Positions 16,798 to 38,514 of a stretch of 64,000 bases of DNA are shown here, one piece after another (position 1 is the first letter of the stretch; each line of letters starts with the position of its first letter). Source of the DNA: Clostridia bacterium (GTDB taxonomy: Bacteria > Bacillota > Clostridia > Oscillospirales > Acutalibacteraceae); the NCBI GenBank assembly GCA_017513525.1, contig JAFXFC010000023.1:5373-69372 (forward strand), read 5' to 3'. The position numbers and the translations under genes were made by a program. The notes under the pieces were generated by a model. That model was not told the DNA's origin. It did no database searches and saw only the letters and a list, made by a program, of their open reading frames with translations.

Positions 16798-16840
16798 CAA
16801 AAAAATACCCCTCTGCACCGAAGTGCAGAGGGGATTTTTA
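16798..16840 (-). terminator. Rho-independent terminator of the giant gene (hairpin usable in both directions)
   Basis: CCCCTCTGCAC cgaa GTGCAGAGGGG, flanked by an A-run on the left and a T-run on the right. It lies 40 nt beyond the stop at 16878. Confidence 0.8.
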
Positions 16841-16877: not shown

Positions 16878-19800
16878 TTATGAGAAGAGATTTCTGAAGA
16901 AATCAGCTATCTTCTGGAAGAAGTCCTTGATTGCCTGGAAGAACTTCATTAAGCCGTTCTGAGCAACACCTTCGGAACCGATGATATCGCCATTCTGGAA
17001 GTTATCAAGAAGTCCGCCGAGAGAAGCACCGATATTCTTAATGAAATCAAGATCACTTGTAGCGAAGAGGTTGCCGAGGAAGGTATAGTCGTCATTCAAT
17101 TCGCCCATGAAATCTTCAGTTTCGTGAACTGCTACGTTAGCAGTATAGAATATCTGGTATACGGTGTAGAGGATTGCATCCATACCGTCTTCAGTTGCAG
17201 CCATCTGTGAGAAGTTCTCAAGAAGAGAGGTAAGGAAGATGTAACCTTCTTCGCTGAGACTATCTGCAAGAAGAACTTCAAGAGCTTCAACATTTTCGGG
17301 AATTGATACGAAGTTAAGAACAAGACGAAGAATTATTGTAACAAAGTCAATCTGATCTGCGCCGGTTGCTAACTTCATTGTGTAAGCTGTATCACCGTTC
17401 TTTGACTCGAAGGATACGATTGTTCCCATTGTAAGCTCATTGAGAGCATTCATAGCAACTGCCTTAAGTTCAAGGCCTGTGCCTTCTGTTACAAGACCAA
17501 GAAGCATATCAACGAGTGCATCGAATGAACCTAAATCAGCACTGTCAATACCAACAAGTTCATAAAGATCAACATCAACGAGAGGCTCGAGGTTTGCAAG
17601 AACTGTGAATACTGCTCTGAGAGCGTTATTAAGAACTGTATTAACACCGTTGGAGTTAATGAAGTAAATAAGTCCGGGAAGAGTTTCAAGTAATCCTGCA
17701 ACAGGATCAGCAAGAATTGCATCAATCTTGTTAAGAAGAGGATTGAGGATGTTGAGGAGAAGTCCGTCTGTATCTGCTGCATATTCTGCAGGAGTGAGAA
17801 CGCCTTCACAGCCGAGTGCTTCAAGTAACGGAATGATACCGTAAGCATAGCCGTCTGCACCTTCAATAACTACATAGTTTTCGCCTTCGATATCGCTGAA
17901 GAATGCAAGATCCTTACTTGTAAAGAGCCATTCAAGAATGGGATTTACGGGCTTGAGCATTTCAACAAGCTGAGCTACGAATGCATCACGATCACCTGTT
18001 GCGATTTCTGCTACTGTGTAGTTATCCCAAACAGTTACATCAACGCCGAGTGAAGCATTAAGTATTGCTGCTGCCTGTGCGAACAAGTCGTCACCAAGAA
18101 GTTCCTTGAGCTGACCTACAAGACCCTTAAGAGTATCAGCGAGAGCAACAAGATTGTCTGTTGTGTAAATGGAAGTACCGATAAGATCGTTGAGAAGTCC
18201 TTCGATGCTTTCTACATTTTCACCGTTAGCATTCTGATATCCGATAAGTGTAATTGTTGTATCAATGAATTCAGGTAACCACTTATTGATATATTCAGCC
18301 TGTTCTCTTGTGTAGAGATCGCCGTAAACATAGTCATAAAGTGCATTGTCAGCTACAACAGGAGAAATTACTTCGCCTGTATCAGCTTTATCAGTGTACT
18401 GCCAGCTGAATTCAAGAACATCAACTACCTTCTTGTCTGCATCAGCAAGATATCTCATGAGAACTGTGTAGACATCATCGCCTATAAGTTCCTTAACCTT
18501 AGCTGCGTTAGCTTCAGAAGTGAATACATCAGCAACGAGAGAGATAAGAACTGTTATAAAGTCAATTCTTGTTTCTTCTTCTGTGTAAACCATAGTGTAA
18601 GCAGGTAATCCGTTTGCAGATGTTTCCTTTTCAAGCTTACCGATATAGAAGCCTGTAAGGAAATTCTGAAGTTCTGCAGGAACAACGATTCCAAGCTGTT
18701 CTTCAAGAATCGCGAATACTGCTGCTAAATCAAGATTTGTAATATCAATGCCTTCGATAAGTGTTGCAAAGTCAACGCTTAAGCCCATAGGTTCAAGAGT
18801 ATCAAGGATAAACTGAACGGGAGCAAGGAGGTTATTAACAACAACCTTAAGACCGCCTGCATTGATGAAATAGATAAGGTTGGGAAGAAGATCAAATGCT
18901 TCAGTAACTGTTACGGAAGTATTATCTTCATTTACACCGTTGCAGATATAAGCAATTCTTTCAGTAAGCTTACCAAAGATGCTTGTAACTGCCTTTGTCA
19001 TATCAAGAACGCCATTTACATAGAAGGTTTCAGCATTTTCTGCTTCTACGCCGAATGCCTCAAGGAGAGGAACAAGAGCATAGTTATAGCCTTCGCCGCC
19101 CTTGATTGTGATAATAACATTATTATCAACACCTGTGAAGAATTCGAAATCTTCACCGAAGAGGAGCCATGCAAGAAGTCTGTTTGCGGGAGCAAGTGCT
19201 TCTGCAAATGCATTTACAAATGCTACTCTCTTAGCTTCTGCTGTTTCAGCAGCATCAATGCCCCAGTCATATTCACATGTAACTGTGCCATCTTCAGCTA
19301 TATCGCAGTAATCATCGAACCAAGCTGCAAGTCCTTCTGCACCGATTACAGCGCCTGCACCCTTAATGATATCTTCATATTCTACAAGGAAGCCGACTGC
19401 CATTTTGATAAGACTGTTAAGGATACTATCCTGATAAAGTCCACCAACAATAGCATCTTCGAGAAGCTGACCGAGGTCTGCGTCTGCACCCTTTACAAGT
19501 GCCATTACACCGTCAACGATTGCTTCAAGATTTTCATCAAGTACTGCTGCAACATCTTCATTCCAGTTGTTCTGGTACTTGGTGTAGTTAGAGAATATAT
19601 CGCCTTCTACACGAGCAGGAAGCTTGCCGTCTGCGGGTACTGTATTATCGTCATACATGTAGCCCCAGTTGAGGTTGGAGTATACGAAATCATTTTCATA
19701 GCCCTTCATAAGGGTAAGTATTGCATCGTATACGGCTTCGTCTTTAATAATACCTGCGAAGAGAGCTTCATTGCTCTTGAATACTTCAAGTGCAAGTGTG

Positions 19801-22800
19801 AGGATTATTGTAAGAACATCGTGTTCATAGTCAGTAACATCAACTCTGAATGCCTGCTTGCCGTTTGCTGCTGTAAATTCAGCAGGTACACCAACAGCGA
19901 GTGTCTTTACTACATCCTTAAGTGCATCTGAAAGAACTACACCGTTTGCTTCAGCAAGATCAAGAAGTGCATCAGTTGTAATGTTAAGAATATCAAAGCC
20001 TTCAACAAGTCCGCCAAGAAGGCCTTCGAGTGAAAGGTCTGCATCAATAGCAGGATCAAGAGTATCAAGGATAACCTTTGCGGGAGCAAGAAGGTTATTT
20101 ACAGCCGTCTTAGCGCCGCCTGCATTGATGAAGTAGATAAGGTTGGGAAGAAGCTCAAATACCTTAGCTACTAAGCTGTCTGCAGCTGCAAGTTCATCAA
20201 CAAATGCCAATGCCTTTGCAAGAATATCTACTATAGCATCTGTTACATTTGCATATGCTCTTGCGGGTGCCATTTCTAAGCCGAGAGCTTCGAAGATAGG
20301 TGCAAGACCGTATGCATAGCCTTCGCCGCCGTTAAGAGTGATGAGAGTTTCACCTGTGGAGCTGCTGAGGAATTCATACTTGCCGCCGAAGAAGAGCCAG
20401 TTAAGAAGCGGGTTAGCGGGTTCAAGAACTGTAATGATAGCATTAATGAAAGCTGTTTCTTTATCTTCTGCTTCATCAATACCCCAGTCATATTCGCAGA
20501 TGTAATTTTCTTCTGCATCTGTTCCGGTGATGTAATTATAGAACCATCCGTCAAGCTCAACACCGAGAACTGCATCAACATTTTTAATTATATCTTCAAA
20601 GTCTTTAACTGCGTTTACAATAAGACTGATTACAGAGTTTACAACTGCATCTGAGTAAACATTATCTTCAAGAATGCCGTTTACAAGAGTTGCAACATTC
20701 TTACCCTTAAGACTGTCTACAGAATCAAATACCATTGCGAGTATGTCATCAAGAGCAGAATATACTCCGGTAGCTGCAGCGTCTGTCCAGTCTTTGCTGT
20801 AACCGAGCTTATTAATTGTCGGTTCGCCGAAGCCTTCAGCTCTGAGCTTTTCAATTGCTGCATTTATGTCTGTAGCTTCATCCTCATACATATAACCCCA
20901 ATGGATTTCAGAGAATGTAACCTCAAGACCGCCAACAAGTGTTACTATTGCATCGTAAAGCTTTTCGTCAAGAAGACCGCCAAAGAGCTCTTTGTTGGTT
21001 GTGAATAACTCTACTGCAAGGCTGAGAACTATTGTAAGAACATCATGTTCATAGCCTTCAACATTGAGTCTGTAAGCATAATCACCGTTTACAGATGTGA
21101 ATTTTTCAAGCTTACCAACATAGAGATTCTTAACGATATTAAGCATCTCATCTGAAAGTGTAAGACCTGCATCAGCACCAAGGCCGAGGAGTTCTTCTGT
21201 TGTGAGATTTGTAATATCAATGGGAAGAGTTCCGTCAGGAATAAGATCTGTAATGGAAGCAGGAATATCTTCTGATATAGCTGCAACCTTTTCAAGAATT
21301 CCATTTACGGGAGCAAGGATATTGTTTACACTTGCCTTAATACCGTCAACATTGAGGAAGTAAATAAGGTTGGGAAGAAGATCGAATACCTTAGCTACTG
21401 TGCTTTCGGCTGTTGCGAGGCTATCGACAAGGCCTAATACAGCATTAAGTATATCAGCTACTGCAGCAACTGCATCATACTCTCCGTTTACGAGGTATGC
21501 AGAAGCAGGCTTCATTGTTAAGCCGAGAGCTTCGAATATGGGTACAAGACCCTTTGCATAGCCTTCGCCACCGTTAAGAGTGATAAGGCTCTTATAAGTG
21601 TAATTGCCGTTAGCATCAACTTCAGAATCTGTGAAGAATTCATAGCTGTCGCCGAAGAAGAGGAATGCAAGAAGTCTGTTTGCGGGAGCAAGAGCTTCCT
21701 TAAGAGCGTCTACAAATGCTTCGCCCTTATCTTCTGCTTCGTCTACGCCCCAAGCCTTTGTGCATTCATATTTGCCTGTTTCTTCATTGAGAGTGCAGAA
21801 TGTGAACCATGTTGCAATATCTGTATCAAGTACAACATCAACAGTTTCAAAGAGAGAAGCGTCGAGGCCTGCAAGAAGATTTACAACAGCTTCAATAAGA
21901 GTATTAAGTATCTCATCTGAATATACCTTTTCTTCAAGCATGCCGTTGATAAATGCTGCTATTGTTTCATTTTCACCGAGAAGTGAAGGAAGAAGAAGAT
22001 TAAGAATTTCATCAAGTGAAGCATAAACACCCTTTGCTGCATCTTCTGTCCAGTCATTTGCATAACTGAGATATTCAATTGAGGGCTTAGCATCAACTGT
22101 CAGATAAAGGTCAGGATCAGCATTTTCAGCGTTAAATTCAATTGTGAAAATCTTATCCCAGTCGGGCTGGTCATATTCGTAAACGACGACGCCGATAAGT
22201 TCAAGAACTGCATTAACGATATTTCCAATCTGGTCGTTCTCTGTCTTTTCTGCAATATAGCCGAAGATAGCATCTGCATTTGTCTTGGTAGTATCAGCTG
22301 CGGGCTGACCAAGAGCATCAATAAGAGATGAAAGGATAATTGTGAGTGCGTCTGCAGCATCTACATCAGCATTGCAAAGACCCTTAAGACCTATTGTTGC
22401 AAATGAGCTGTGAACAAGATCAGAGCCAAACATTGCGTCAACAATACCGAGAACTTTTGTAAGAGTGAGATTGTCGATTGTAACTGTAACAGTTATATCG
22501 TCATTACCTTCATAGGTTCCGAGAACAAGACCGAGAACCTTATCCATATCAAGTTCGTTTCCTGCTACGAGGTCAGAAACGATTACTGAAAGAATTGTAT
22601 TTACATCTACATTGATAAGAGGTCTTACTGTATCAACGAGAGCAAGTACGGGAAGAAGAAGGTTATGAAGAAGAACTGAAAGACCGTTGCTTTCGATGTA
22701 GCGAATGAGATTAGTAATAAGATTAATTGCTGTTTCAACAAGTGCGTCGGATGCAAGAGTTGCATCAAGCCATGTAAATACAGCATTAATTACGCTGTTA

Positions 22801-25800
22801 AGTGATCCCATAGGATCAGCTGCGAAATTAACTGCGGGAACAGTAACACCGAGTGTTTCAAGAAGAAGTCCGAGTGTTGAATCGAAGGATTCGTAACCCT
22901 TAAGCTCAACTATACCGAATACACCGAGGTCTTCACCTCCGAGAAGGAATGCAACTGCGGGAGCGAGAGGAGCAAGAACTGCGCAAAGAGTATCAACAAA
23001 TACTGCCTTGTCACCGTCTGCAAGACCGTTCCATACAATGTTGCCTTCAGAATCCTTAACAGCTGTTACGCCGAGAACTGTTGCATCGGGAGCCTCTAAT
23101 TCTTCATTGAAGAGGTAACCGAAGTCATTAGCCCATGCGCCCATGTTAACACCAAGCTGGTCAACAAGGATGTCGCTGAGAATTTCAGGAAGTTCAATTC
23201 CTGCGAATGTTTCAACAAGCTTTGTGATTGTCTCATTTGTGAAGAGACCGCCTAAGAGACCGTCAACCTTTTCTTTGAGGAATGCATTGATATCCTCTGG
23301 CATTGCATCAGAACCTGTCATTCCAAGAACTGCCTTAACGATATCCATAGCGTTATCAATAAGATACTGTGATTCAGACTTAGTCCAATCGTTTGCATAG
23401 TGAAGGTAAACGATAGATTCGTCTGCACCTTCTGCCCATGTCATTTCCTTGAGTTCATACTCAACGGGGTTGAGAAGCTCAACGAGAGCTGCGATAGCAT
23501 CGTCGGGATCATCTGCGATTGAACCGAAAACCTTATTGAGAACTGTACCGAGAGTACCTTCAAGGTCAAGTCCTCCATCTTCACCGCCAACCATGCCGAT
23601 AATAGCATTGAGGAATTCGGGGTTAAGAGCACTTACAAGATAGTCAAGGAGGAAGAAGAGAACGTCTGCCTTGTCAGCTGTAAGGCTGTTTTTGCTGTTC
23701 CACTTTGCACATTCAATGAGACCTGTCTGGTCGATGTCGGGAAGATCAAGATCAACTTCGAGAGATTCGAAGAGGAAGTCAAGGAGTGAATTGATATTGC
23801 TGATGTCAATACCAACAAGATCCTTAAGTGTTGCTGCACCTGCGATGTCAGCAATACCCATCTGATCAGCGAATACTTCAAAGCTCAATGAATCGCCAAG
23901 CCAATTCAGCAATGTGCCGAAAAGACCGCTTGCATTGGAGCCTGCAATACCGAGTTTAACTGAGAAGTCAAGAAGGATACTGCCAAGGAAGGAATCAATG
24001 AAGTCTGTGGAAAGAATATATGCAAGATTGGGAAGAAGTCCCAGAATTGTATCAAGGGGTGCTGCTACTACCTTATCAAGAAGTGAGAAGATAGGATCAA
24101 GAATAGCCTTTGCATAATCAATACCATTAGAGGATGTTGTAAGATTTGCATTAGCAGTAAGTCCGAGAAGTGAGAAGAGAGGCTGGAAGAGATTTGCATA
24201 AAGATTCAAGGGCTGAACTGCTAAGCTAAGGGAAGCATAAAATTCGGCATTATTAATATTAACAATAGAAATAGCAGAAATGCTACCGTAACCTACACCT
24301 GCAGGGTTATCAGCAGAACCGAGAGTCTTATCAAATGCCTGATTCAGGAAGAGAGTGGGAAGAAGAGAACCTACTGAATCAAGAACACCGCCGAGAACCT
24401 TAGTAAAGGAGGCTCTGTCTGTGATACCCCAATCAAGGTTGAGGTTATATGTGAAGGTTTCTGTTTCAGGATCAAATACACCGAGAGCTGTCCATGAATT
24501 ACCTGCAGCCTTCAGCATCTTATGAGCTTCACTTGATGTTGTGAGAACACCTGATGAAACCATGCTGTCTGCAAGTGTGGAGGGGAATATATAAAGACCG
24601 GCAGACTTGAGAAGCTCAGCAAAGGACATCTGTATTCTTTCCTGACCTTCTTTTGTTACATCGCCAAGATATACATCAATACCGCCGCTTATCTGATCAA
24701 CTAATGCAGAAAGGTCAACATAACCTACAGCACCGGGGTTCTGAGGAGGTATCTTATTGGGGTTAACATCTTCACTATTAAGAAGATTACTAAGTTCTGT
24801 AACAAGAAGGTCTTCAATCATGGGGAAGAGCATACCGATAACCATATTAATAAGGTCATTGTTGAAGAGCATTTCGCCCAACATACCGTAAAGGTAATCA
24901 CCGAGACCTACTGCATTACCGTCAGCGTCTTCAAAGCCGAGAAGAGCACCGAAGTCTTCTGAAGCAAGGAAGTTATCAAGCTTAACGATAGTATCATTAA
25001 TCTTTGCTTCATCAACTGTGTAAGCATCTTCCTTTACAAGGTCTTCATCCATAACATCACGGACAACATAAACGCCGTTTTCGTCGAGTTCAACCTTCTG
25101 GAAGCCGCTTGTGTTAATTTTATTAACAAATGCATTGTATGCATTGATAACAGCCTGAACATCACTGTAAAGAGCCTGGTCAGCTGCGCTTACCCAACCG
25201 TTATCTGCGCAAAGCTGATAAAGAGCCTGGTCGAAGTTTTTAACAGCTGTGCTTACAATAACAAGGTTGTCGAAGTTAACGTTAGCTGCCATATCCTTAT
25301 AGCCTGCAGCGATTGCTATCTGAGCACTGTTTCTTGCAACAAGTTCAGTCTGAATAGAATTCTTTGAAATTACATTCTGAATAAGTGCGGGTGAGCCACC
25401 TTCACCGATTGTTACACTGAACAAGGGGTTAACAACTGCAGCACCGTATTTTGTAACCTGCTCATTATAAACAGCTATCAGAGCCTCACGATTTACATCG
25501 TAGTCTGAATACATTGTCATAACATCAGCAGTTGCCATAGCAGAGTAGTTACCGAAGAGAACAGGTGTGTAGTAGTTATACTGCACATTGAAAGCTGCTT
25601 CAGTTTCTGCGGGAGATCTTGCTTCAATGTTTGCCTTAACACTATTAATAAGATTGTTAAGGTTGTTTACTGTGGTGCCCATTACGGAGCTTACTGCAGT
25701 TTGGTTTGCAGCACCAATAGTACCCTTATAGCCGTTGAGCTTATTAAGAAGAGTCTTGAGAACGGGAATATCAAGAGTATTAAGATTTACTCCGTTGTAT

Positions 25801-27053
25801 GCAGCAAGGTCAGCATCAATTGTTGCCTTAAGACCGGGAAGGGTAATAAGGTCCATTGCCTTCTTCATATCGTTAAGATATTCTTTTGCTGCTGCAATAT
25901 CAAAGTCTGCATATTCAGCCTTTGTCTTGATGTAATCAAATACTTCGGAGCCATAGCCCTTGATTGCATTATAAGCTGAGTTTGCGGGAGCATAGATGGC
26001 TGCCATCTCATCGTAATTTTCGCTATCATATTCTGTGCCTACCTTATCCATAAGGATATCGATAGCGGGCAAGGAGAGATTAATCTGCATTGCCTTGAGA
26101 AGATCACGGAAATACTGATTGTAGCTACCAAATAACTTATCAACATTTGCGAATGTATACTTGTCTATCATTGCCTGATAGGGAGCATAATTCTCATTGT
26201 AGATAGCTTCGAGTTCAGAAGCGGGAAGAGCTATCATTTCATCGAATGTCATTGAAAGATCTTCGGAAGCAAGAACTTTACCGAATTCCTTGAGCTCGTC
26301 AATGGAAACGATGTTCTTGATTTCTGTTCTCTTTAAGGATGATAAATAGTTCCATCTGTAACCCATACAGTCATAATCACAGTTTTTGGAACTATAATTC
26401 TGGTCAAGACAAGCCTGGTCAGCAACCATTGAGTATGTGAATGTTACACCCTGAAGAAGAGAAACAGGAATATCATCAACAGAATTGTATTTTTCAAGAA
26501 GAGAACTAACAGTGCCATAAACCTTTACAGTCTTCTGGGTTTTATCTGTGGGGATTGTATTGTATACGTACTTATGGTCACAACCATTACACTTTCCGCC
26601 ATTAACGGGAGTAACCTGTTCAATACCTGTGACAGTATCTCCGGGAGGATCAAGAATGTACTGCAATGCCAAATACTTGTCACCTGATGTAAAACCAGTG
26701 TTTGCAGCAACTTTAGCTAACAAAGTGGAAGTTGCATTTACCTGAGCGGTAGAAGCCATACCCTCATGAGCTGTATTGGCATTTGCTTCTTTTAAGCTTA
26801 TTGCATAAGCATAAATCTCGTCAGCTGCAACTGCTACTGCAGCATCACCTTTGTATGTATATGAGTTGTATTCAAGATGACCTTTATAAACAATCTCATT
26901 TACTACATCATCGGTGAGTGCGTTCTTTACCGATTGGACAGTTCCCGTTGCAGCATAAGCTGTAAAGTCCAGACCGGCAAAGCCTACTGAGCAAGCTGTG
27001 TATATCATTAATAATGATAAGAACAAGCTCAGCGATTTCTTCGCGATTTTCAT
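16878..27053 (-). CDS. Giant secreted modular protein of unknown function (about 3,391 aa)
   Basis: One uninterrupted 10.2-kb ORF. GGAAGG lies 6 nt upstream of the ATG at 27053; the track starts 14 codons earlier at 27095. The signal peptide is MKIAKKSLSLFLSLLMIYTACSVGFAGLDFTAYA. There are internal tandem modules. I saw no LPXTG, SLH, dockerin or other recognisable domain. Confidence 0.9.
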   Translation of the reverse strand: MKIAKKSLSLFLSLLMIYTACSVGFAGLDFTAYAATGTVQSVKNALTDDVVNEIVYKGHLEYNSYTYKGDAAVAVAADEIYAYAISLKEANANTAHEGMASTAQVNATSTLLAKVAANTGFTSGDKYLALQYILDPPGDTVTGIEQVTPVNGGKCNGCDHKYVYNTIPTDKTQKTVKVYGTVSSLLEKYNSVDDIPVSLLQGVTFTYSMVADQACLDQNYSSKNCDYDCMGYRWNYLSSLKRTEIKNIVSIDELKEFGKVLASEDLSMTFDEMIALPASELEAIYNENYAPYQAMIDKYTFANVDKLFGSYNQYFRDLLKAMQINLSLPAIDILMDKVGTEYDSENYDEMAAIYAPANSAYNAIKGYGSEVFDYIKTKAEYADFDIAAAKEYLNDMKKAMDLITLPGLKATIDADLAAYNGVNLNTLDIPVLKTLLNKLNGYKGTIGAANQTAVSSVMGTTVNNLNNLINSVKANIEARSPAETEAAFNVQYNYYTPVLFGNYSAMATADVMTMYSDYDVNREALIAVYNEQVTKYGAAVVNPLFSVTIGEGGSPALIQNVISKNSIQTELVARNSAQIAIAAGYKDMAANVNFDNLVIVSTAVKNFDQALYQLCADNGWVSAADQALYSDVQAVINAYNAFVNKINTSGFQKVELDENGVYVVRDVMDEDLVKEDAYTVDEAKINDTIVKLDNFLASEDFGALLGFEDADGNAVGLGDYLYGMLGEMLFNNDLINMVIGMLFPMIEDLLVTELSNLLNSEDVNPNKIPPQNPGAVGYVDLSALVDQISGGIDVYLGDVTKEGQERIQMSFAELLKSAGLYIFPSTLADSMVSSGVLTTSSEAHKMLKAAGNSWTALGVFDPETETFTYNLNLDWGITDRASFTKVLGGVLDSVGSLLPTLFLNQAFDKTLGSADNPAGVGYGSISAISIVNINNAEFYASLSLAVQPLNLYANLFQPLFSLLGLTANANLTTSSNGIDYAKAILDPIFSLLDKVVAAPLDTILGLLPNLAYILSTDFIDSFLGSILLDFSVKLGIAGSNASGLFGTLLNWLGDSLSFEVFADQMGIADIAGAATLKDLVGIDISNINSLLDFLFESLEVDLDLPDIDQTGLIECAKWNSKNSLTADKADVLFFLLDYLVSALNPEFLNAIIGMVGGEDGGLDLEGTLGTVLNKVFGSIADDPDDAIAALVELLNPVEYELKEMTWAEGADESIVYLHYANDWTKSESQYLIDNAMDIVKAVLGMTGSDAMPEDINAFLKEKVDGLLGGLFTNETITKLVETFAGIELPEILSDILVDQLGVNMGAWANDFGYLFNEELEAPDATVLGVTAVKDSEGNIVWNGLADGDKAVFVDTLCAVLAPLAPAVAFLLGGEDLGVFGIVELKGYESFDSTLGLLLETLGVTVPAVNFAADPMGSLNSVINAVFTWLDATLASDALVETAINLITNLIRYIESNGLSVLLHNLLLPVLALVDTVRPLINVDVNTILSVIVSDLVAGNELDMDKVLGLVLGTYEGNDDITVTVTIDNLTLTKVLGIVDAMFGSDLVHSSFATIGLKGLCNADVDAADALTIILSSLIDALGQPAADTTKTNADAIFGYIAEKTENDQIGNIVNAVLELIGVVVYEYDQPDWDKIFTIEFNAENADPDLYLTVDAKPSIEYLSYANDWTEDAAKGVYASLDEILNLLLPSLLGENETIAAFINGMLEEKVYSDEILNTLIEAVVNLLAGLDASLFETVDVVLDTDIATWFTFCTLNEETGKYECTKAWGVDEAEDKGEAFVDALKEALAPANRLLAFLFFGDSYEFFTDSEVDANGNYTYKSLITLNGGEGYAKGLVPIFEALGLTMKPASAYLVNGEYDAVAAVADILNAVLGLVDSLATAESTVAKVFDLLPNLIYFLNVDGIKASVNNILAPVNGILEKVAAISEDIPASITDLIPDGTLPIDITNLTTEELLGLGADAGLTLSDEMLNIVKNLYVGKLEKFTSVNGDYAYRLNVEGYEHDVLTIVLSLAVELFTTNKELFGGLLDEKLYDAIVTLVGGLEVTFSEIHWGYMYEDEATDINAAIEKLRAEGFGEPTINKLGYSKDWTDAAATGVYSALDDILAMVFDSVDSLKGKNVATLVNGILEDNVYSDAVVNSVISLIVNAVKDFEDIIKNVDAVLGVELDGWFYNYITGTDAEENYICEYDWGIDEAEDKETAFINAIITVLEPANPLLNWLFFGGKYEFLSSSTGETLITLNGGEGYAYGLAPIFEALGLEMAPARAYANVTDAIVDILAKALAFVDELAAADSLVAKVFELLPNLIYFINAGGAKTAVNNLLAPAKVILDTLDPAIDADLSLEGLLGGLVEGFDILNITTDALLDLAEANGVVLSDALKDVVKTLAVGVPAEFTAANGKQAFRVDVTDYEHDVLTIILTLALEVFKSNEALFAGIIKDEAVYDAILTLMKGYENDFVYSNLNWGYMYDDNTVPADGKLPARVEGDIFSNYTKYQNNWNEDVAAVLDENLEAIVDGVMALVKGADADLGQLLEDAIVGGLYQDSILNSLIKMAVGFLVEYEDIIKGAGAVIGAEGLAAWFDDYCDIAEDGTVTCEYDWGIDAAETAEAKRVAFVNAFAEALAPANRLLAWLLFGEDFEFFTGVDNNVIITIKGGEGYNYALVPLLEAFGVEAENAETFYVNGVLDMTKAVTSIFGKLTERIAYICNGVNEDNTSVTVTEAFDLLPNLIYFINAGGLKVVVNNLLAPVQFILDTLEPMGLSVDFATLIEGIDITNLDLAAVFAILEEQLGIVVPAELQNFLTGFYIGKLEKETSANGLPAYTMVYTEEETRIDFITVLISLVADVFTSEANAAKVKELIGDDVYTVLMRYLADADKKVVDVLEFSWQYTDKADTGEVISPVVADNALYDYVYGDLYTREQAEYINKWLPEFIDTTITLIGYQNANGENVESIEGLLNDLIGTSIYTTDNLVALADTLKGLVGQLKELLGDDLFAQAAAILNASLGVDVTVWDNYTVAEIATGDRDAFVAQLVEMLKPVNPILEWLFTSKDLAFFSDIEGENYVVIEGADGYAYGIIPLLEALGCEGVLTPAEYAADTDGLLLNILNPLLNKIDAILADPVAGLLETLPGLIYFINSNGVNTVLNNALRAVFTVLANLEPLVDVDLYELVGIDSADLGSFDALVDMLLGLVTEGTGLELKAVAMNALNELTMGTIVSFESKNGDTAYTMKLATGADQIDFVTIILRLVLNFVSIPENVEALEVLLADSLSEEGYIFLTSLLENFSQMAATEDGMDAILYTVYQIFYTANVAVHETEDFMGELNDDYTFLGNLFATSDLDFIKNIGASLGGLLDNFQNGDIIGSEGVAQNGLMKFFQAIKDFFQKIADFFRNLFS
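17661..24038 (-). repeat. At least six tandem coding modules (about 400-440 aa each) inside the giant gene
   Basis: The anchor motif LLPNLIYF(I/L)N recurs on the minus strand at 21357-21380, 20130-20153, 18867-18890 and 17661-17684, the last as TLPGLIYF. Spacings are 1227, 1263 and 1206 nt. Degenerate copies lie near 22695-22715 (NLIRYIESNG) and 24013-24038 (LLPNLAYILS). Co-recurring motifs are WG(V/I)D(E/A)AE...AF(V/I).A...L.PAN.LL..L.FG and ITLNGGEGY..GL.PIFEALGL. Confidence 0.85.
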
Positions 27054-27112
27054 AAAAAACCTTCCTTTCATTTTTTTCGGCAGTTTTTCTGCCAAAACGG
27101 GGCTTCGGGCAA

Positions 27113-27272: not shown

Positions 27273-27386
27273 TTTTGAGGCAAAATTATGAACAATCTAT
27301 TAACAGATGCGCGGAGTTTATTTTTTGTTTATTTTTCTGTGATATCATACAAAACGCAAAGAGAATTAAGAAAAAGGGTGTTTTTT

Positions 27387-28076
27387 ATGTTTCAAATACT
27401 TGTTGCAGAAGACAATGCAAACTCTGCAAAGCTTATGAGAATAATACTCAATCAGGCTGGTTATAAGGTTATATTAGTGTCAAACGGCTATGAAGCCCTT
27501 GAAGTTATGGACACGAAGCACATAGACCTTATAGTGCTTGATGTCATGATGCCTAAAATGGACGGCTTCGAGTTTACAAGACAGCTTCGGCAGGCAGGAA
27601 ACACAACTCCCATTCTTATGGTAACGGCAAAATATCAGAATGAAGACAAGTGCGAGGGCTTTATTGCGGGAACAGACGACTATATGGTAAAGCCCGTAAA
27701 CGAAATGGAGCTTTTACTGAGAATTAAAGCACTTCTTCGCCGCTCTCAGATGATAAGCGAGCATAAGCTTCAGATAGGCGACGTAACACTTGATTATGAC
27801 TCATTAAGTGTCAGCAGAAAGGGAGAAATGCAGATACTGCCTCAAAAAGAATTCTATTTATTATATACACTTCTCTCCTCCCCCGAAAAGGTTTTTACAA
27901 GACTGCAGCTAATGGACAGAATATGGGGTATGAACTCGGAAACGGTCGATACCACCGTTAATGTTCATGTAAACCGCCTGAGAAAGCGCTTTGACGGCTG
28001 GACTGAATTTGAAATAGTGGCTATCAGAGGTGTAGGCTACATGGCGGTGATTAAGGATGAAAAAAAAGAAGGATAA
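27387..28076 (+). CDS. OmpR/PhoB-family response regulator
   Basis: MFQILVAEDN... receiver domain (DLIVLDVMMPKMDG, KP) plus a winged-helix domain (VHVNRLRKRF...IRGVGY). The start is set at the internal ATG at 27387 with an AAGGGTG RBS. The track ORF begins at 27288 with an implausible hydrophobic extension. Confidence 0.92.
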   Translation: MFQILVAEDNANSAKLMRIILNQAGYKVILVSNGYEALEVMDTKHIDLIVLDVMMPKMDGFEFTRQLRQAGNTTPILMVTAKYQNEDKCEGFIAGTDDYMVKPVNEMELLLRIKALLRRSQMISEHKLQIGDVTLDYDSLSVSRKGEMQILPQKEFYLLYTLLSSPEKVFTRLQLMDRIWGMNSETVDTTVNVHVNRLRKRFDGWTEFEIVAIRGVGYMAVIKDEKKEG

Positions 28077-29112
28077 AAAAAGAAGCATTTACAGAAACAT
28101 AAGAACAACCTTGCTCATTGGCATTGCCGCTTTTATTATACTGACCTTGACCCTTACAATAGCTTCATGGATATTCCAACTGTTATATAAATATAATCTT
28201 ATAGATGAAACTAACTACAAAACCGTTATGTTCTATGATTATGCAGCTGTAAGCACTGTTATCGGCTGTATATTATCTGTTATTATCATCCACCGCCCGA
28301 TGTCAAGAATGCAAAGACTTCTTGATGCAATGGAGCAGATATCAAACGGTAACTTTTCCGCAAGACTGCACGCCAAAAGCAAGACCGACCTGATAAAAAG
28401 AAGCGTTGCCATATTCAACAACATGGCAACACAGCTTGAAAATATTAACATGCTGAGCCACGATTTTATAAACAATTTCTCCCATGAAATCAAGACTCCG
28501 ATAGCTTCAATAAACGGTTTTGCAAAGCTCCTTAAGAACGAAAATCTTACAGATGAAGAAAGAAATGAATATCTTGATATCATTATTCAGGAATCCGACC
28601 ATTTAAGCAATCTTTCGGCAAATATACTGACTTTATCAAGGCTTGAGCATCAGTCCGTTGTAACAAATAAGACATATTTTAATGTCAGCGAACAAATCCG
28701 CATAACTATCGGCTCTTTATACAATAACTGGTCCAAAAAAAACACCGAAATAGTGTTTAATTCAGACGAATACTATATCAATGCAAATAAAGAAATGATA
28801 GGTCAGGTATGGATAAATCTCATTGATAACGCCATTAAATTCTCCCCCGATAAAACGGATATCGATATTTCCCTTAAAAGTGACGGTGAAACACTGATTT
28901 TTTCTATCAGCAACTTCGGAAAACCAATACCGCCCGAAAACGAAAAACGCATATTCGACAAATTCTATCAGGGTGATGAATCACATTCAACAAGCGGAAA
29001 CGGTCTGGGACTTCCGATGGTCAAAAAAATCGTTGAATTGCACAACGGAGAAATAAAGCTTAAAACCAATAACGAATTAATAACATTTGAAGTATCACTT
29101 CCTACAGAATAA
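28057..29112 (+). CDS. Sensor histidine kinase, short intramembrane-sensing type
   Basis: 351 aa with two N-terminal TM helices separated by about 20 residues. H-box is SHEIKTPIASINGF, N-box is NLIDNAIKFSP and G-box is GNGLGLPMVKKIV. It overlaps the response-regulator stop. Confidence 0.9.
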   Translation: MKKKKDKKRSIYRNIRTTLLIGIAAFIILTLTLTIASWIFQLLYKYNLIDETNYKTVMFYDYAAVSTVIGCILSVIIIHRPMSRMQRLLDAMEQISNGNFSARLHAKSKTDLIKRSVAIFNNMATQLENINMLSHDFINNFSHEIKTPIASINGFAKLLKNENLTDEERNEYLDIIIQESDHLSNLSANILTLSRLEHQSVVTNKTYFNVSEQIRITIGSLYNNWSKKNTEIVFNSDEYYINANKEMIGQVWINLIDNAIKFSPDKTDIDISLKSDGETLIFSISNFGKPIPPENEKRIFDKFYQGDESHSTSGNGLGLPMVKKIVELHNGEIKLKTNNELITFEVSLPTE

Positions 29113-30011: not shown

Positions 30012-33000
30012 ATGCTATATAAGAAAAACATTGAAAAGTCACTTCAAAAATCACTTTTTGAAAAACCCACCTCTGAATACAGAGGAACTCCCTTCTGGGC
30101 ATTGAACTCTTACCTTACAAAAGAGGAGCTGTGCCGTCAGATAGATGTTTTTAAGGAAATGGGACTTGGCGGTTTTCATTTACATGTAAGAACAGGACTT
30201 GAAAACAAGTATTTAAGCGATGAATATATGGAGCTTATAAAAGCAACGGTAGATAAAGCAAAAAATGAAGAAATGCTCGCGTGGCTCTATGACGAGGACC
30301 GTTGGCCCTCAGGCGCTGCAGGCGGATTTGTAACTAAAGACGAAAAATACAGAGGAAGATGTCTTCTTTTCACTCCCTTTAAGGATGCTGATATTTATTC
30401 ATCAAATGATTCACGCTCCAAGGGCGGAAGATCCGGTAAAGGCACACTTATTGCCTGTTATGATATCGTTCTCGATAATGACGGATATCTTGAAAGCTAC
30501 AGGCGAATAGACGAAAACGAAGAAGCGACAGGCACAAAATGGTATGCTTTTCTTGAAATACATGCTCCGTCGAGCTGGTATAACGGCGAGTCTTATGCTG
30601 ATACATTAAGTAAAGAAGCCATTGAAAAATTCATTGAAGTTACCCATGAAAGATATAAGGACAAAGTAGGCGACGAATTCGACAAGACCGTTCCCGCCAT
30701 ATTTACCGATGAGCCTCAGTTTACAAGAAAAAGAGTTCTCGACAACTCCTTTGATAAAATGGACATCACTATGCCATGGACAGATAAAGTTCCCGAGCTT
30801 TATAAAGAAGCCTACGGCGAGGATATTCTCGATTTTCTTCCCGAAGTGTTCTGGGATCTTCCTGAGTCCGCTCCAAGTATTCACCGTTACCGTTATCACG
30901 ATTTTATTGCAGAGCTTTTCGCCGTTTCTTTTGCAGACACGGTAGGCTCATGGTGTGATAAAAATAACATTGCTCTTACAGGTCATATGATGGAAGAGCC
31001 CTCACTTCATTCACAGACAGCAGCTCTCGGTGAAGCAATGCGTTCCTACAGAAGCTTTCAGCTTCCCGGCATTGATATGCTTTGCAATTCACATGAATTC
31101 ACTACAGCAAAGCAAGCTCAGTCTGCCGTTCATCAGTTCGGATATGAGGGTATGCTTTCAGAGCTTTACGGTGTTACAGGCTGGGACTGTGATTTCAGAA
31201 CCTACAAGCATCAAGGCGACTGGCAGGCATGTCTTGGTGTCACTATCCGTGTTCCTCATTTATCATGGTATGCTATGAAGGGTGAAGCAAAGCGTGACTA
31301 CCCTGCTTCAATTCATTATCAGTCCCCTTGGTATAAGGAATATAATATAATAGAAGACCACTTCGCAAGAGTAAACACAGCGCTTACCCGCGGCAAGCCC
31401 GTAGTTAAGGTCGGTGTTATTCATCCCGTAGAGAGCTTCTGGCTTCACTGGGGACCCAATGACAAATCCGCTGTTTTCAGAGAAAGTCTTGATGAGAGAT
31501 TTTTCAATGTAACAAACTGGCTTCTTGAAGGAAGCATTGACTTCAACTTTATTTCCGAAGCACTTTTGCCCACACTCTGTAAAGAGGGCAGCGCCCCCCT
31601 TAAGGTTGGCGAAATGGAATATGATGCCATTATCGTTCCCGGTTGCGAAACTCTGAGAAAAACCACCCTCGAAAGACTTAAAGCCTTCAAAGAAAAGGGC
31701 GGTAAGCTTATATTCATGGGAGATGCTCCCACTCTTATTGATGCTGTACCCGATGAAAGCGGAAAAGCTCTTTTCAACGAATGCCAAAACATAGATTTTT
31801 CAAGAGCTTCACTTCTTACGGCCCTCGAAGACATAAGAAGCCTTACAATAAGATATGCTGACGGCAGACTTACGGATAATTTCATTTATCAGCTTCGAAA
31901 AGATACTGATTGCAGCTGGCTTTTCATCTGCAATTCGAAAGAGCCCGACAACAAGCATATTGACGGCGGAGACGATATTCAGATAATTCTTAACGGTATC
32001 TACTCCCCCGAAATATATGACACCGCAAACGGAGATATTTATCCTTATAAAGCTGAATACTTAAACGGCAAAACTATAATAAGATATAAATTATTCGGCT
32101 ATGACTCCTTACTTCTGAGACTCACTCAGGGTGAAGGCAATTGCGAAAACACCCAAAAGCTTTTAACTCAGGCTGAAGAAGCCAAAGGAATATTTGTTGA
32201 TTATTCTCTTTCAGAGGATAATGTTCTTGTTCTTGATATGGCTGAATTCAAGCTCGACGGTGACACTGAATTTTCACCCAAAGAAGAAATTCTCCGCCTT
32301 GATAATATTATAAGAGAAAGACTCGGTCTTAAAGAAAGAGGCGGTCATGTAGTTCAGCCCTGGGTGCTCGGAGATATGCCAAAGCCGCACAAGGTAACAC
32401 TTAAATTTACTTTCATGAGTGAAATTGACTACTCAGGTGCAGTTCTTGCTCTTGAAGATGCCGATGTTGCAGAAGTTGTATTCAACGGAAAGAAAGCAGA
32501 TACCCGACTTTCGGGATACTATGTTGACATATCTATTGGTAAAATTGCACTTCCCGATATCATCAAGGGAGAAAATACTCTTGAAATAACCCTTCCTTTC
32601 GGTGAAACCGCAAACCTTGAAAATGTGTTCATATTAGGAAAGTTTGGTGTTAATGTTAACGGCAGCTTCGCTTTCATTACCGCTCTTCCCGAAAAGCTTA
32701 CCTTCGGTTCATTACTTTCACAGGGACTTCCCTTCTACGGCGGTGCCGTTACATATAAGCTCACATCCGAAACCGAAAATGACGATCTTATTATTACAGC
32801 AAGTGATTACATGGGCGCACTTATAAAAGTAAGTGTTGACGGCAAGGAAGCCGGAAACATTATATATCCGCCCTATACACTCGAAGTCAAGGGTGTTGGA
32901 GCAGGTAAACACGAGGTTGAGCTTACAGCCTATCTTCACAGATATAACACCTTCGGACCCATTCACCTTGTAAATGTAAAAGAATCATGGCACGGTCCCG

Positions 33001-33086
33001 GAGCATGGCGTTCAAGCGGCATAAACTGGAGCTATGAATATATTCTTCGCACAACAGGTATATTGAAAACTCCCGGAATAAATTAA
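30012..33086 (+). CDS. Large putative glycoside hydrolase (family not assignable by eye)
   Basis: 1,024 aa with no signal peptide. The N-terminus RGTPFWALNSYLTKEELCRQIDVFKEMGLGGFHLHVRTGL resembles the TIM-barrel start of large glycosidases annotated as glycosyl hydrolase with a jelly-roll C-terminus. This assignment is from memory of such families only. Confidence 0.5.
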   Translation: MLYKKNIEKSLQKSLFEKPTSEYRGTPFWALNSYLTKEELCRQIDVFKEMGLGGFHLHVRTGLENKYLSDEYMELIKATVDKAKNEEMLAWLYDEDRWPSGAAGGFVTKDEKYRGRCLLFTPFKDADIYSSNDSRSKGGRSGKGTLIACYDIVLDNDGYLESYRRIDENEEATGTKWYAFLEIHAPSSWYNGESYADTLSKEAIEKFIEVTHERYKDKVGDEFDKTVPAIFTDEPQFTRKRVLDNSFDKMDITMPWTDKVPELYKEAYGEDILDFLPEVFWDLPESAPSIHRYRYHDFIAELFAVSFADTVGSWCDKNNIALTGHMMEEPSLHSQTAALGEAMRSYRSFQLPGIDMLCNSHEFTTAKQAQSAVHQFGYEGMLSELYGVTGWDCDFRTYKHQGDWQACLGVTIRVPHLSWYAMKGEAKRDYPASIHYQSPWYKEYNIIEDHFARVNTALTRGKPVVKVGVIHPVESFWLHWGPNDKSAVFRESLDERFFNVTNWLLEGSIDFNFISEALLPTLCKEGSAPLKVGEMEYDAIIVPGCETLRKTTLERLKAFKEKGGKLIFMGDAPTLIDAVPDESGKALFNECQNIDFSRASLLTALEDIRSLTIRYADGRLTDNFIYQLRKDTDCSWLFICNSKEPDNKHIDGGDDIQIILNGIYSPEIYDTANGDIYPYKAEYLNGKTIIRYKLFGYDSLLLRLTQGEGNCENTQKLLTQAEEAKGIFVDYSLSEDNVLVLDMAEFKLDGDTEFSPKEEILRLDNIIRERLGLKERGGHVVQPWVLGDMPKPHKVTLKFTFMSEIDYSGAVLALEDADVAEVVFNGKKADTRLSGYYVDISIGKIALPDIIKGENTLEITLPFGETANLENVFILGKFGVNVNGSFAFITALPEKLTFGSLLSQGLPFYGGAVTYKLTSETENDDLIITASDYMGALIKVSVDGKEAGNIIYPPYTLEVKGVGAGKHEVELTAYLHRYNTFGPIHLVNVKESWHGPGAWRSSGINWSYEYILRTTGILKTPGIN

Positions 33087-33126
33087 AATTTTTTCATAAA
33101 ACATAATAAGACAAGTTTTTCACTGA

Positions 33127-33165
33127 AACTCCGTTACAATGATACGTAACGGAGTTTCTTTTTTT
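33127..33165 (+). terminator. Rho-independent terminator after the glycosidase gene
   Basis: AACTCCGTTAC aatgata c GTAACGGAGTT followed by tctttttttt. Confidence 0.8.
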
Positions 33166-33178
33166 GGAGTGATAAAAA

Positions 33179-33478
33179 TTGCAGACAGTAATAGCGGACA
33201 AGTCCTTAACTGTTTTTTTAAGCGGAGAAATAGATCACCATACGGCAGGAAGAATAAGAGAAAAAGCAGACAGTGAGATAATAAAATATTCTCCAAAAGA
33301 GCTTATACTCGATTTTTCTGATGTTACCTTTATGGATTCCTCAGGCGTGGGACTTGTTATCGGAAGATATAAGCTTGCAAGTAATAACGGCTGTAAAACC
33401 GTTGTTACGGGACTTAAAGAGCGGGACAAAAAAATACTTATGATGTCAGGACTGCAAAATAAAATTGAATTCAGGTGA
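33179..33478 (+). CDS. spoIIAA: Anti-sigma F factor antagonist SpoIIAA (STAS domain)
   Basis: 99 aa with a TTG start after GGAGTGA. Contains LSGEIDHHTAGRIREKAD and DFSDVTFMDSSGVGLVIGRYK. First gene of a three-gene spoIIA arrangement. Confidence 0.9.
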   Translation: MQTVIADKSLTVFLSGEIDHHTAGRIREKADSEIIKYSPKELILDFSDVTFMDSSGVGLVIGRYKLASNNGCKTVVTGLKERDKKILMMSGLQNKIEFR

Positions 33479-33921
33479 TAAAAATGAAAAAGCCTATTAA
33501 TGATTTTAAGATGAATGTTTTATCGAAATCCGTAAATGAAGGATTTTTACGGGCGGTAACATCGGCATTCTGTTCTCTCGCCGATCCGACGCTTGAAGAA
33601 ATAAGTGACATAAAAACAGCCGTCAGCGAAGCTGTTACAAACGCTATCGTGCACGGCTATAAAGAAAAACAGGGAAGAATTTACATAGATGCCGCACTTT
33701 ATCCCGATAACATCATAAAGATAAAAATACGGGATAAGGGCTGCGGTATCGAAGATGTGCAAAAGGCAATGGAGCCTCTGTTTACAACTGCAGGCGATGA
33801 CCGTTCGGGACTCGGTTTTTCCGTAATGGAAAGCTTTACCGACAAATTAAGCGTGCGTTCAGCACCAAACAAGGGAACCGTTGTCACACTCACAAAAAAA
33901 ATATCGGGAAAGTGTGAATAA
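33475..33921 (+). CDS. spoIIAB: Anti-sigma F factor SpoIIAB (GHKL Ser kinase)
   Basis: 148 aa with AVSEAVTNAIVHGY, IRDKGCGIED and SGLGFSVMESF. A GTGA overlap links it to spoIIAA; an ATG at 33484 is an alternative start. Confidence 0.9.
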   Translation: MIKMKKPINDFKMNVLSKSVNEGFLRAVTSAFCSLADPTLEEISDIKTAVSEAVTNAIVHGYKEKQGRIYIDAALYPDNIIKIKIRDKGCGIEDVQKAMEPLFTTAGDDRSGLGFSVMESFTDKLSVRSAPNKGTVVTLTKKISGKCE

Positions 33922-34577
33922 TGTTAAATTCTTCTGCAAATGACTCTTTAGTTACTGAAAACATCGGCCTTGTCCACTCATGCGCAAACCGCTTTAAAGG
34001 CAGAGGTGTGGAATATGAGGATCTGTTTCAGGCAGGCTGTGTGGGGCTTATTAAAGCTGCCGCAGGCTTTGACCCTGAAAAAGGCTTCAAGTTTTCAACC
34101 TATGCCGTTCCTGCCATTCTCGGAGAAATACGAAGGATATTCCGTGACGGAGGAACAGTAAAAATAGGACGGGCAGCAAAAGAAAAAGCAAGACAGCTTT
34201 TAAGCATTAAAGAAGAGCTCGCCGCAATTACGGGGAAAGAGCCTACCATAACTGAAATAGCAAAAAAGGCAGATATCGAGATTGCAGAAGCGGCGGCACT
34301 GGTAAGTGCGTGTCTTCCCGTAATATCTCTTACTGCCGAAGAGGATGACTCGCAAACGGATATACCTGTTGCCTCCCCCGACGAAAAGCTTTCCGAAAGA
34401 CTTGATCTCAGAAAAGCATTATCCTCTTTGGAGGATAATGAGCAAAGAATAATAGAGCTGCGATATTTCAAGGGACTTACGCAAACGGTCACAGCCGAAA
34501 AGCTGGGGCTTTCTCAGGTACAAGTATCAAGAAAAGAAAAAGCTATTCTCGGAAAATTAAGAAAAATGCTTGCTTGA
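33921..34577 (+). CDS. sigF: Sporulation sigma factor SigF
   Basis: 218 aa. Sigma-70 regions 2-4 are present (DLFQAGCVGLIKAAAGFDPEKGFKFSTYAVPAILGEIRR; LGLSQVQVSRKEKAILGKLR). Its position is after spoIIAB. Confidence 0.88.
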   Translation: MLNSSANDSLVTENIGLVHSCANRFKGRGVEYEDLFQAGCVGLIKAAAGFDPEKGFKFSTYAVPAILGEIRRIFRDGGTVKIGRAAKEKARQLLSIKEELAAITGKEPTITEIAKKADIEIAEAAALVSACLPVISLTAEEDDSQTDIPVASPDEKLSERLDLRKALSSLEDNEQRIIELRYFKGLTQTVTAEKLGLSQVQVSRKEKAILGKLRKMLA

Positions 34578-34639
34578 CATTCTTTTCTTATTGTGTTAAC
34601 CTTTCTTTTTGGAAAATGAGAAAAAAGAGGATAACATAA

Positions 34640-35581
34640 ATGCAAAAAAGTCAGTTCAAGGGCATTTTTATGCTCTTTCTTACAGCCTTCATCTGGGGCT
34701 CTTCCTTTGTTGCACAGTCCCTCGGCATGGAAAGTGTTGAGGCCTTTACCTTTAACGGAATAAGAACACTTTTCGGTGCTGCGGCACTCTTACCGTTCAT
34801 AATAGCAAAAGACCTGATAAATATAAAAAAGCACGGGAAGCCCCCGAAAGAAAAAGTAAAAGCCGAAACTAAAAAGATACTTATAGGCGGTACCGTTATG
34901 GGTCTTGCGCTTTGTATTGCAAGTAACTTTCAGCAGTATGCTTTCACATATGAAGATCATTCAGCAGGAAAAATAGCATTTATCACTGCTTTTTATATGT
35001 TCTTTGTGCCTCTTATAGGACTTCTTTTCAGAAAGCGTGTACCCTTAGTTACATGGCTGTGCGTTATTATAGGCACTGTTGGTCTTTATTTCTTATGTGT
35101 CGGAGAAGAAGGCTTCTCTGCTATTACAAAAAGCGATATTTTTTCTTTTATATGTTCAATATGCTATGCTGTGCACATTCTCGTCATAGAGAAATTTGCC
35201 GCAGATTCAGATGCCGTAAAGCTCTCATTTACACAGTTCACGGTATCGGGAGTTATTACCTGCATAATCATGTTTATTGTTGAAACACCAACTGTTACTG
35301 CTATAAACCAGAGTATTCTTCCTCTTCTTTATTCGGGAATAATGAGCTGCGGACTCGCCTATACATTCCAGATTATAGGACAAAAATACACAGAGTCTAC
35401 AGTAGCATCACTTATAATGTGCCTTGAATCCGTTTTCGGAGTACTGTGCGGAGCTCTTTTCTTACAGGAAAGACTGACACAAAGAGAAATTATAGGCTGT
35501 GTAATTATGTTCGCTGCCATAATTCTTTCACAGTTCAGCGAACAGATACACGAAAAAGCAAAAACTAAAAGACAAGCATAA
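34640..35581 (+). CDS. EamA/DMT-family transporter
   Basis: 313 aa with about 10 TM segments and a duplicated EamA-like pattern (FIWGSSFVAQ...). Confidence 0.8.
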   Translation: MQKSQFKGIFMLFLTAFIWGSSFVAQSLGMESVEAFTFNGIRTLFGAAALLPFIIAKDLINIKKHGKPPKEKVKAETKKILIGGTVMGLALCIASNFQQYAFTYEDHSAGKIAFITAFYMFFVPLIGLLFRKRVPLVTWLCVIIGTVGLYFLCVGEEGFSAITKSDIFSFICSICYAVHILVIEKFAADSDAVKLSFTQFTVSGVITCIIMFIVETPTVTAINQSILPLLYSGIMSCGLAYTFQIIGQKYTESTVASLIMCLESVFGVLCGALFLQERLTQREIIGCVIMFAAIILSQFSEQIHEKAKTKRQA

Positions 35582-35584
35582 ACT

Positions 35585-35616
35585 AAGACCGTTCCAAAAA
35601 AACTCGGAACGGTCTT
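35585..35616. terminator. Hairpin between convergent EamA and M23 genes (weak U-tracts)
   Basis: AAGACCGTTCC ...loop... GGAACGGTCTT. Confidence 0.4.
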
Positions 35617-35619
35617 AAA

Positions 35620-36366: not shown

Positions 36367-36406
36367 ATTATTACCTCCTATAAGAATTTTGTCCTGTGAA
36401 GTAAAA

Positions 36407-36434: not shown

Positions 36435-36436
36435 AA

Positions 36437-38501: not shown

Positions 38502-38514
38502 TATTTTTCTCCGT

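Follow-up and report, generated by a model that had tools for sequence, protein, structure and literature searches.

Ebh of Staphylococcus aureus and Embp of S. epidermidis are giant surface proteins that form helical rods. Far shorter elements can also keep an exported protein on the cell: Escherichia coli PBP5 (DacA) and PBP6 are exported with a cleavable signal peptide, and a short amphipathic helix at their C-terminus attaches them to the cytoplasmic membrane on its outer face. Other envelope proteins, among them MacA, YknX, PcsB and EnvC, are extracytoplasmic partners of type VII (MacB/FtsEX) ATP-binding cassette (ABC) transporters, and it is via partner proteins that transporters of the MacB, FtsEX and LolCDE type perform mechanical work outside the membrane. 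The Oscillospirales of the gut are abundant and mostly uncultured, and their cell surfaces have hardly been studied. The window analysed here comprises 64,000 nucleotides of DNA from a Clostridia bacterium of this order (Acutalibacteraceae; assembly GCA_017513525.1, contig JAFXFC010000023.1, positions 5,373 to 69,372). It contains, on the minus strand at 16878–27053, a gene for a protein of 3,391 amino acids (aa), the giant protein, which we infer from its sequence to be a modular surface protein made from modules of an unrecognised type and kept in place by a previously undescribed anchor.

The giant gene is a single uninterrupted frame (16878–27095 in the list of open reading frames (ORFs) of the window), with its probable start codon at the ATG at 27053. 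A ribosome-binding site, AAAGGAAGG, can be read directly at 27060–27068 on the same strand, six bases before this ATG, and a G+C-rich hairpin followed by a run of T residues, resembling an intrinsic terminator, lies 45 nt past the stop codon (16808–16833, minus strand). Because of this strong hairpin and T-run, the gene looks monocistronic. The original prediction, made by reading the letters of the window, had described one 10.2-kb frame for a signal-peptide-bearing protein with at least six modules. The frame is intact, its strand, which was left unstated, is minus, and self-comparison and alignment find six modules, one of them degenerate. No ORF in the 2.59-Mb genome is larger. Calculated from its composition, the mature product has a mass of ∼362 kDa and a pI of 4.05; Leu, Ala, Val, Asp and Asn are abundant, and there are just 17 Cys residues. 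The identical protein is recorded on five contigs. The gene encodes a real, exported modular protein, and one that belongs to a large unnamed family.

A word-indexed search returned 330 relatives, and a profile search of 1.84 billion representatives returned 679 matches at E ≤ 1e-3, of which 399 reached E ≤ 1e-30, so that the family counts at least 679 clusters. Family proteins reach 7,691 residues. The 249 members that were retrieved share a constant layout, consisting of a signal peptide, a head of ∼750–1,180 aa, 2–12 full modules and a tail of ∼46 aa. The giant protein has this layout; its modules fit the module profile and carry the motifs WG(I/V)D, GGEGY..GL.P..EALG and LLPNLIYFIN. All source names are ‘hypothetical’ except for one ‘InlB B-repeat’ label, and the labelled sources are metagenome-assembled genomes (MAGs) of Clostridia, Oscillospiraceae/Ruminococcaceae and Acutalibacteraceae. 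Since only three of 401 sampled genomes of the same order match, the family is patchy among species representatives. A scan of genome contigs found one locus only. The family appears so far to be confined to uncultured Clostridia, and it is large and without a name in any database.

The six tandem modules are 408–495 residues long and share 24–48% pairwise identity. They were delimited by piecewise self-comparison followed by alignment of the units, with the unit of the last module taken as aa 2897–3391, linker and tail included. A profile built from 33 aligned modules (A2) scores all six at 146–457 bits. All lie on the minus strand. Module 0 (aa 752–1209; 23427–24800) is degenerate, with 23% identity to the other modules and a score of 146 bits. 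Module 1 (aa 1210–1654; 22092–23426) is nearest to the first full modules of the homologues L020, L018 and L001. Module 2 (aa 1655–2076; 20826–22091) and module 4 (aa 2485–2896; 18366–19601) are defined by self-comparison, alignment and profile score, and module 3, the one used for structure modelling, occupies aa 2077–2484 (19602–20825). Module 5, together with an acidic linker (aa 2897–3368; 16950–18365), is nearest to the last modules of L021, L001 and L018. The three recurring motifs reported earlier are all present in the modules, and their positions were exact: LLPNLIYF is found at aa 1892, 2301 and 2722 (21357, 20130 and 18867) and its variant TLPGLIYF at aa 3124 (17661). Two degenerate upstream copies, also claimed earlier, are located at aa 1006 and ∼1446. 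Conservation between modules falls on Gly, Pro, Asn, Tyr, Trp and hydrophobic residues, which makes catalysis improbable.

Searches for known domains and folds came back empty. The whole giant protein has no match at E ≤ 1 in Pfam, NCBIfam or the sequences of the PDB, and the best match of the A2 module profile to PDB sequences has an E of 0.13. An AlphaFold2 model of module 3, built on the 33 aligned modules, reaches a pLDDT of 77.9 and a pTM of 0.74 and contains 17 helices and three β-hairpins. The pTM suggests that a single module is compact, and speaks to nothing beyond that. Foldseek, which the original prediction had proposed running on a single module, found no match for this model in the PDB (best E 0.8, TM 0.16 or less) or in BFVD (best E 0.025, TM 0.10). 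Together, the sequence and fold searches bear out its description of the module as being of an unrecognised type. The fold of the module therefore appears new relative to the PDB and BFVD only, and that of the head, whose model gave a best E of 0.38, TM-scores of no more than 0.16 and no fold match in Foldseek, relative to the PDB only. Pfam found nothing significant in the head regions of four distant family members. The domain searches also agree with the earlier reading that LPXTG, SLH, dockerin, Ig-like and RHS elements are absent from the giant protein. Pfam and NCBIfam detect no CWB2, cohesin or LysM domain in it, and these databases and the PDB reveal no enzyme, toxin (glucosyltransferase, protease, RHS-repeat) or known anchor domain. 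No description of the module or of the tail was found in the literature.

The C-terminal tail provides the best clue to where the protein resides. Its last 23 residues (aa 3369–3391, MKFFQAIKDFFQKIADFFRNLFS; 16881–16949, minus strand) form a Phe-rich amphipathic helix, a candidate in-plane membrane anchor. The hydrophobic moment of 0.78 is the highest of any 18-residue window in the 3,391 aa, and C-terminal moments of at least 0.7 occur in just 0.7% of the ORFs of the genome (≥150 aa). The amphipathic ending had been noticed in the original prediction, which missed its value for locating the protein. No stretch of the family is more conserved than the tail, so that the C-terminus is not variable as it is in polymorphic toxins. 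Among the 249 members, 202 end in the amphipathic helix, 17 in a Cys/His-flanked form and seven in a transmembrane (TM) helix followed by KKKK, with the remaining 23 truncated or different; the giant protein itself ends in the amphipathic helix and has no C-terminal TM segment. Because relatives carry a TM helix and a Lys-rich stub in place of the tail, the C-terminus can be placed at the membrane, and the tail most likely pins it to the outer face.

The same tail, detected with a tail hidden Markov model and a regular expression, ends ∼20 ORFs of the source genome, and 20 of 22 tail candidates there have signal peptides. Four are other giants (1,784–2,328 aa) with Flg_new (Listeria-Bacteroides) repeats, Big_2 and YDG/MBG domains, and further tail-bearing proteins contain CotH, GDSL lipase, metallophosphoesterase, GLUG and alpha/beta-hydrolase domains. 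Tail-bearing ORFs lie at C10:336-7331, C4:22644-28925, C41:31008-37772, C42:86702-92065, C25:182-1138, C4:82527-84257, C29:62667-64376, C29:116515-118521, C51:14205-16217, C39:2929-4503, C46:27961-28458, C47:82485-83357 and C50:64087-65619, among others. Of 120 homologues of the CotH protein, 99 have amphipathic C-termini and 13 Cys/His-flanked ones. The tail is thus shared by many exported proteins and appears to be interchangeable with a TM anchor; it looks like a general surface-retention tag of the source organism. Searches of NCBIfam and Pfam with eight tails gave only sub-threshold compositional matches (e.g., FtsA_C at E 0.025), and no curated model for the tail was found in either database. 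LPXTG-type signals in the source genome are limited to ∼4 small pilin-like ORFs beside sortase-like genes. At C7:67725-71625 and C8:2111-4643, class-C-like sortase genes (TLVTCTPYG) stand with pilin-like substrates of the LPETGG type, and sortase anchoring seems limited to those few proteins.

In the Cys/His variant, the helix is clamped between Cys/His clusters (CxCxCH ... FIRFFFKIANFFRRLFGM ... CxCGxxH[WY]). This ending replaces the plain tail in family members P0009, P0014, P0017, P0053 and others, and it is also found at C39:96737-97831 of the source genome and in CotH homologues such as P0403, P0408 and P0464. We conjecture that this is the same anchor in a version stabilised by metal or by disulfides. 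A degenerate DNA pattern for the tail, run over metagenomes, proved too loose: nearly all of its 120 matches were A/T-rich low-complexity noise. Three of the 120 were ORFs with tail-like ends, namely L033 (a 907-aa frame ending in FFENIFGFFKNLFN), L058 (a 438-aa frame ending in LFFRSIIQFFSNLFTSGTGN) and L097 (ending in FFSKIGNFFKNLFN). Tail-like endings may therefore occur beyond gut Clostridia.

At its other end, the giant protein begins with a Sec-type signal peptide (aa 1–34, MKIAKKSLSLFLSLLMIYTACSVGFAGLDFTAYA, then A; 26952–27053, minus strand), recognised from the sequence and from the same N-terminus across the family. A Cys within the hydrophobic core of this peptide is kept in 170 of 226 family members, 118 of the 226 show a loose lipobox-like pattern, and an AxA cleavage site lies ∼12 residues after the core Cys. 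The conserved head follows (aa 35–751; 24801–26951, minus strand) and shows full-length homology to the heads of 76 family members, at 22–68% identity. An AlphaFold model of aa 35–760 based on 40 homologues (pLDDT 80.7, pTM 0.46) predicts an alpha/beta subdomain with two long β-hairpins at about aa 35–250, the remainder being helical. A unique N-terminal region had been proposed at about 1,000 aa; such a region exists, but it covers ∼750 aa, the degenerate module beginning at aa 752.

The module array is old. The original prediction had pointed to near-identical DNA between modules, and the stretch 18859–18897 does match 20122–20160 at 37 of 39 positions. It took this as a sign of recent duplication or gene conversion, which positional orthology and a codon test do not support. 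DNA-level repeats within the giant gene are only 62–83% identical. The best matches of the five clear modules (43–59% identity) are modules in proteins of other species, and for modules 1 and 5 the best match occupies the same position. Modules at the same position in proteins of other species match the five clear modules at 39–59% identity, more closely than do neighbours within the giant protein; the one exception is module 3, which is 51% identical to a module of L020 and 47% to its own neighbour, module 2. Where residues are identical between modules, the codon is the same in 41–68% of cases, and the longest runs of identical codons (9–11) are about what chance would give. Gene conversion between modules is rejected on these grounds. 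As runs of identical codons are no longer than about chance would give, the 39-nt near-identity reflects the most conserved motif plus codon bias, and since the best matches of the modules lie in other species' proteins, the array is old and has diverged position by position. Module gain is nonetheless visible elsewhere in the family. The syntenic orthologues L018 (8001–19841; 3,946 aa, seven modules) and L019 (8001–18617; 3,538 aa, six modules) come from two MAGs. A single module of 408 aa accounts for the whole difference between them, and the extra copy is 74% identical to its neighbour. The pair is a clean case of gain by tandem duplication, and module number varies in that way.

Shorter paralogues in the source genome place the module in a second context. 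One paralogue, of 1,601 aa, ends in the amphipathic tail. A two-module paralogue of 1,008 aa (P0265) has, instead of the tail, a TM helix with an extended Lys-rich stub behind it, which predicts a type I membrane protein whose modules lie outside. Its locus, C11:31983-38532, comprises a TetR gene (31983–32732), the two-module gene (32707–35733) and a fused ABC_tran+FtsX gene (35755–38532). The two-module subfamily has at least 124 proteins, none of them functionally named. We examined five contexts, those of the source genome and of four homologues of 33–58% identity; besides C11, the loci concerned are L022, L023, L024, L029 and L030. In all five, a fused ABC_tran+FtsX gene (914–926 aa) lies 3–37 bases downstream of the two-module gene on the same strand, and in two of the five a TetR gene is just upstream of the pair. 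The fused protein is of MacB topology: its TM1 and TM2 are separated by an outside domain of ∼490 aa. HlyD, CHAP and LytM domains were not found in the two-module paralogue, and neither it nor the giant protein has any Pfam match, HlyD included. No FtsX-type ABC gene adjoins the giant gene in the window or at four giant-homologue loci.

A third paralogue, of about 1,588 aa with two recognisable modules, is encoded at C50:59045-63811 and ends in FARIKAFFEKIKLFFQRLFGII. After it (C50:64096-65622) comes a gene for an exported lipase-like protein of the PGAP1/alpha-beta-hydrolase type, with an amphipathic tail ending in FIMMLRSFIDTIKAFIANLFK. A second MacB-type ABC gene beside the tail-bearing CotH gene was also considered; this link is conserved in neither of two cases and is treated as a coincidence. 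In the window itself, an OmpR-type response regulator and a histidine kinase (27288–29112) are transcribed divergently from the giant gene. The pair is absent beside the homologues in all four listed gene neighbourhoods, and a general regulatory link between this two-component system and the giant gene was dropped because the pair is not kept there. Any such link would be local to the source lineage.

With moderate confidence, we propose that the giant protein is a long modular surface structure retained by the cell, a tail-anchored stalk that carries the head and serves in scaffolding, spacing or adhesion. The very acidic ∼362-kDa chain would be exported through Sec and stay on the cell. Its Phe-rich last 23 residues would tether the C-terminus by lying in the plane of the outer leaflet of the cytoplasmic membrane. 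The six mostly helical modules of ∼420 residues would stack as a stalk, its length depending on their number (2 to 12 or more in relatives), and would hold the head, of ∼720 residues, at its distal end, within the cell wall or past it. The most likely role of such a structure would be envelope scaffolding, spacing or adhesion. Several points weigh against this proposal. Rod-like stacking of the modules is a guess, and membrane binding by the tail is deduced from its composition and from the anchor swaps. The motifs GGEGY..GL.P..EALG and LLPNLIYFIN may mark a binding or working site beyond what a spacer requires, and the conserved ABC pairing of the two-module paralogue points to a more active role. 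The Cys conserved in the signal peptide could make the N-terminus that of a lipoprotein, in which case both ends of the protein would be tethered. Finally, gene neighbourhood is not conserved between the window and four giant-homologue contexts, so that context lends the proposal no functional support.

The ABC pairing suggests the main alternative, which we consider unlikely but worth weighing, in which the modules are the extracytoplasmic partner (an adaptor, lever or conduit) of a mechanotransmission ABC transporter of the MacB/FtsX type, and the giant protein is an extended version of that partner rather than a passive stalk or adhesin. P0265 and its four homologues each precede the fused gene, the transporter has MacB topology with its ∼490-aa outside domain, TetR genes recur upstream in two of the five contexts, and the module motifs are conserved far beyond the needs of a spacer. 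The giant form fits this explanation less well. Its genes, in the window and in the contexts examined, do not stand beside an FtsX-type ABC gene, the outside domains of the ABC proteins are dissimilar to it, and the HlyD/adaptor family is not matched; the operon adjacency of a paralogue is not automatically transferable to the giant. A long shot in the same direction is a new kind of envelope machine driven by MacB-type ABC transporters, in which the ∼420-residue module would do the work on the outside. The TM-anchored two-module form would be the core partner, giants of 6–12 modules would carry force or cargo across the thick Gram-positive wall, and the Phe-rich tail would dock them at the membrane beside the motor.

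Another explanation takes the tail, rather than the modules, as its point of departure. The protein might be released, or sorted by other machinery, with the tail acting as a Phe-zipper oligomerisation element (three FFxxIxx heptads) or as a recognition tag that is cleaved. We rate this as clearly improbable. The TM helix and Lys-rich stop-transfer stub found in place of the tail in relatives fit anchoring better, no conserved neighbour gene offers itself as a processing enzyme, and the Sec signal peptide makes a second export signal needless. The heptads are nevertheless strict, with three hydrophobic positions each, as in higher-order helical bundles; the tail is conserved in sequence to an extreme degree, beyond mere amphipathicity; and the Cys/His-flanked form resembles a folded mini-domain. 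That the giant protein is a component of the spore surface (coat, exosporium or appendage), where the original prediction had proposed looking for it, is very improbable. The lineage has sporulation genes (sigma factors in the window, SpoVAD near one homologue), and a CotH domain is present in one of the tail-bearing proteins, but CotH domains are common on ordinary secreted proteins, a Sec signal plus a C-terminal membrane tether would be an unusual route to the coat, a sporulation-type promoter was not identified at the giant gene, and the genes around it show no conserved link with sporulation genes. We can practically dismiss the possibilities that the gene is a pseudogene or an artefact of assembly and that its product is one of the known large toxins (large clostridial toxin, Tc or RHS), since size and repetitiveness are all that would suggest any of these. 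The 10.2-kb frame is open, there are hundreds of full-length homologues, and toxin, RHS and enzyme domains were not found. The low DNA identity of the repeats and the record of the same protein on five contigs rule out an artefact of assembly as far as sequence evidence allows.

The giant gene represents hundreds of giant proteins that are annotated as ‘hypothetical’. If the tail-anchored stalk is correct, these bacteria would assemble long surface structures from a new type of module, and a new portable anchor would hold many of their enzymes and adhesin-like proteins, largely replacing LPXTG sorting. Both would bear on how these bacteria attach to particles, to hosts or to one another. Two new annotation models suggest themselves, one for the module and one for the tail, and the short paralogue, being consistently paired with a transporter of the MacB type, offers a concrete and testable way into the function of the module.

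Among the systems introduced above, the extracytoplasmic transporter partners compare with the two-module paralogue. Like MacA, YknX, PcsB and EnvC, the two-module paralogue is predicted to be largely helical and membrane-anchored, and it is encoded immediately upstream of a gene for an ABC protein of MacB topology in five of five contexts. Unlike them, it has no HlyD, CHAP or LytM domain and no sequence similarity to them, and the giant genes do not lie beside such transporters. The comparison with PBP5 concerns the mode of attachment. Although there is no sequence similarity, and although the tail is Phe-rich, built of strict heptads, highly conserved, portable among unrelated proteins and known in a Cys/His variant, the giant protein resembles PBP5 in having a signal peptide and a strongly amphipathic last ∼20 residues (moment 0.78). 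This is a likeness of functional class, with membrane binding predicted.

The remaining comparison is with Ebh and Embp. FIVAR and GA domains, searched for with Pfam at E ≤ 1, are not matched in the giant protein, and its modules of ∼420 aa with β-hairpins differ from the ∼126-aa helix bundles of Ebh. Also unlike Ebh, it lacks a YSIRK signal, the anchor in most family members is an amphipathic helix and a conserved head of 720 aa is present. The Ebh-like ending, a TM helix with a basic stub, is found in seven of 249 family members and in the C11 paralogue, and not in the giant protein itself. By analogy, then, the giant protein may work like Ebh while lacking the features of membership that were looked for (FIVAR/GA modules). 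It shares with Ebh and Embp the general plan of a very large exported Firmicute protein built of tandem, mostly α-helical modules, with a probable C-terminal membrane tether and a length set by the number of its modules.

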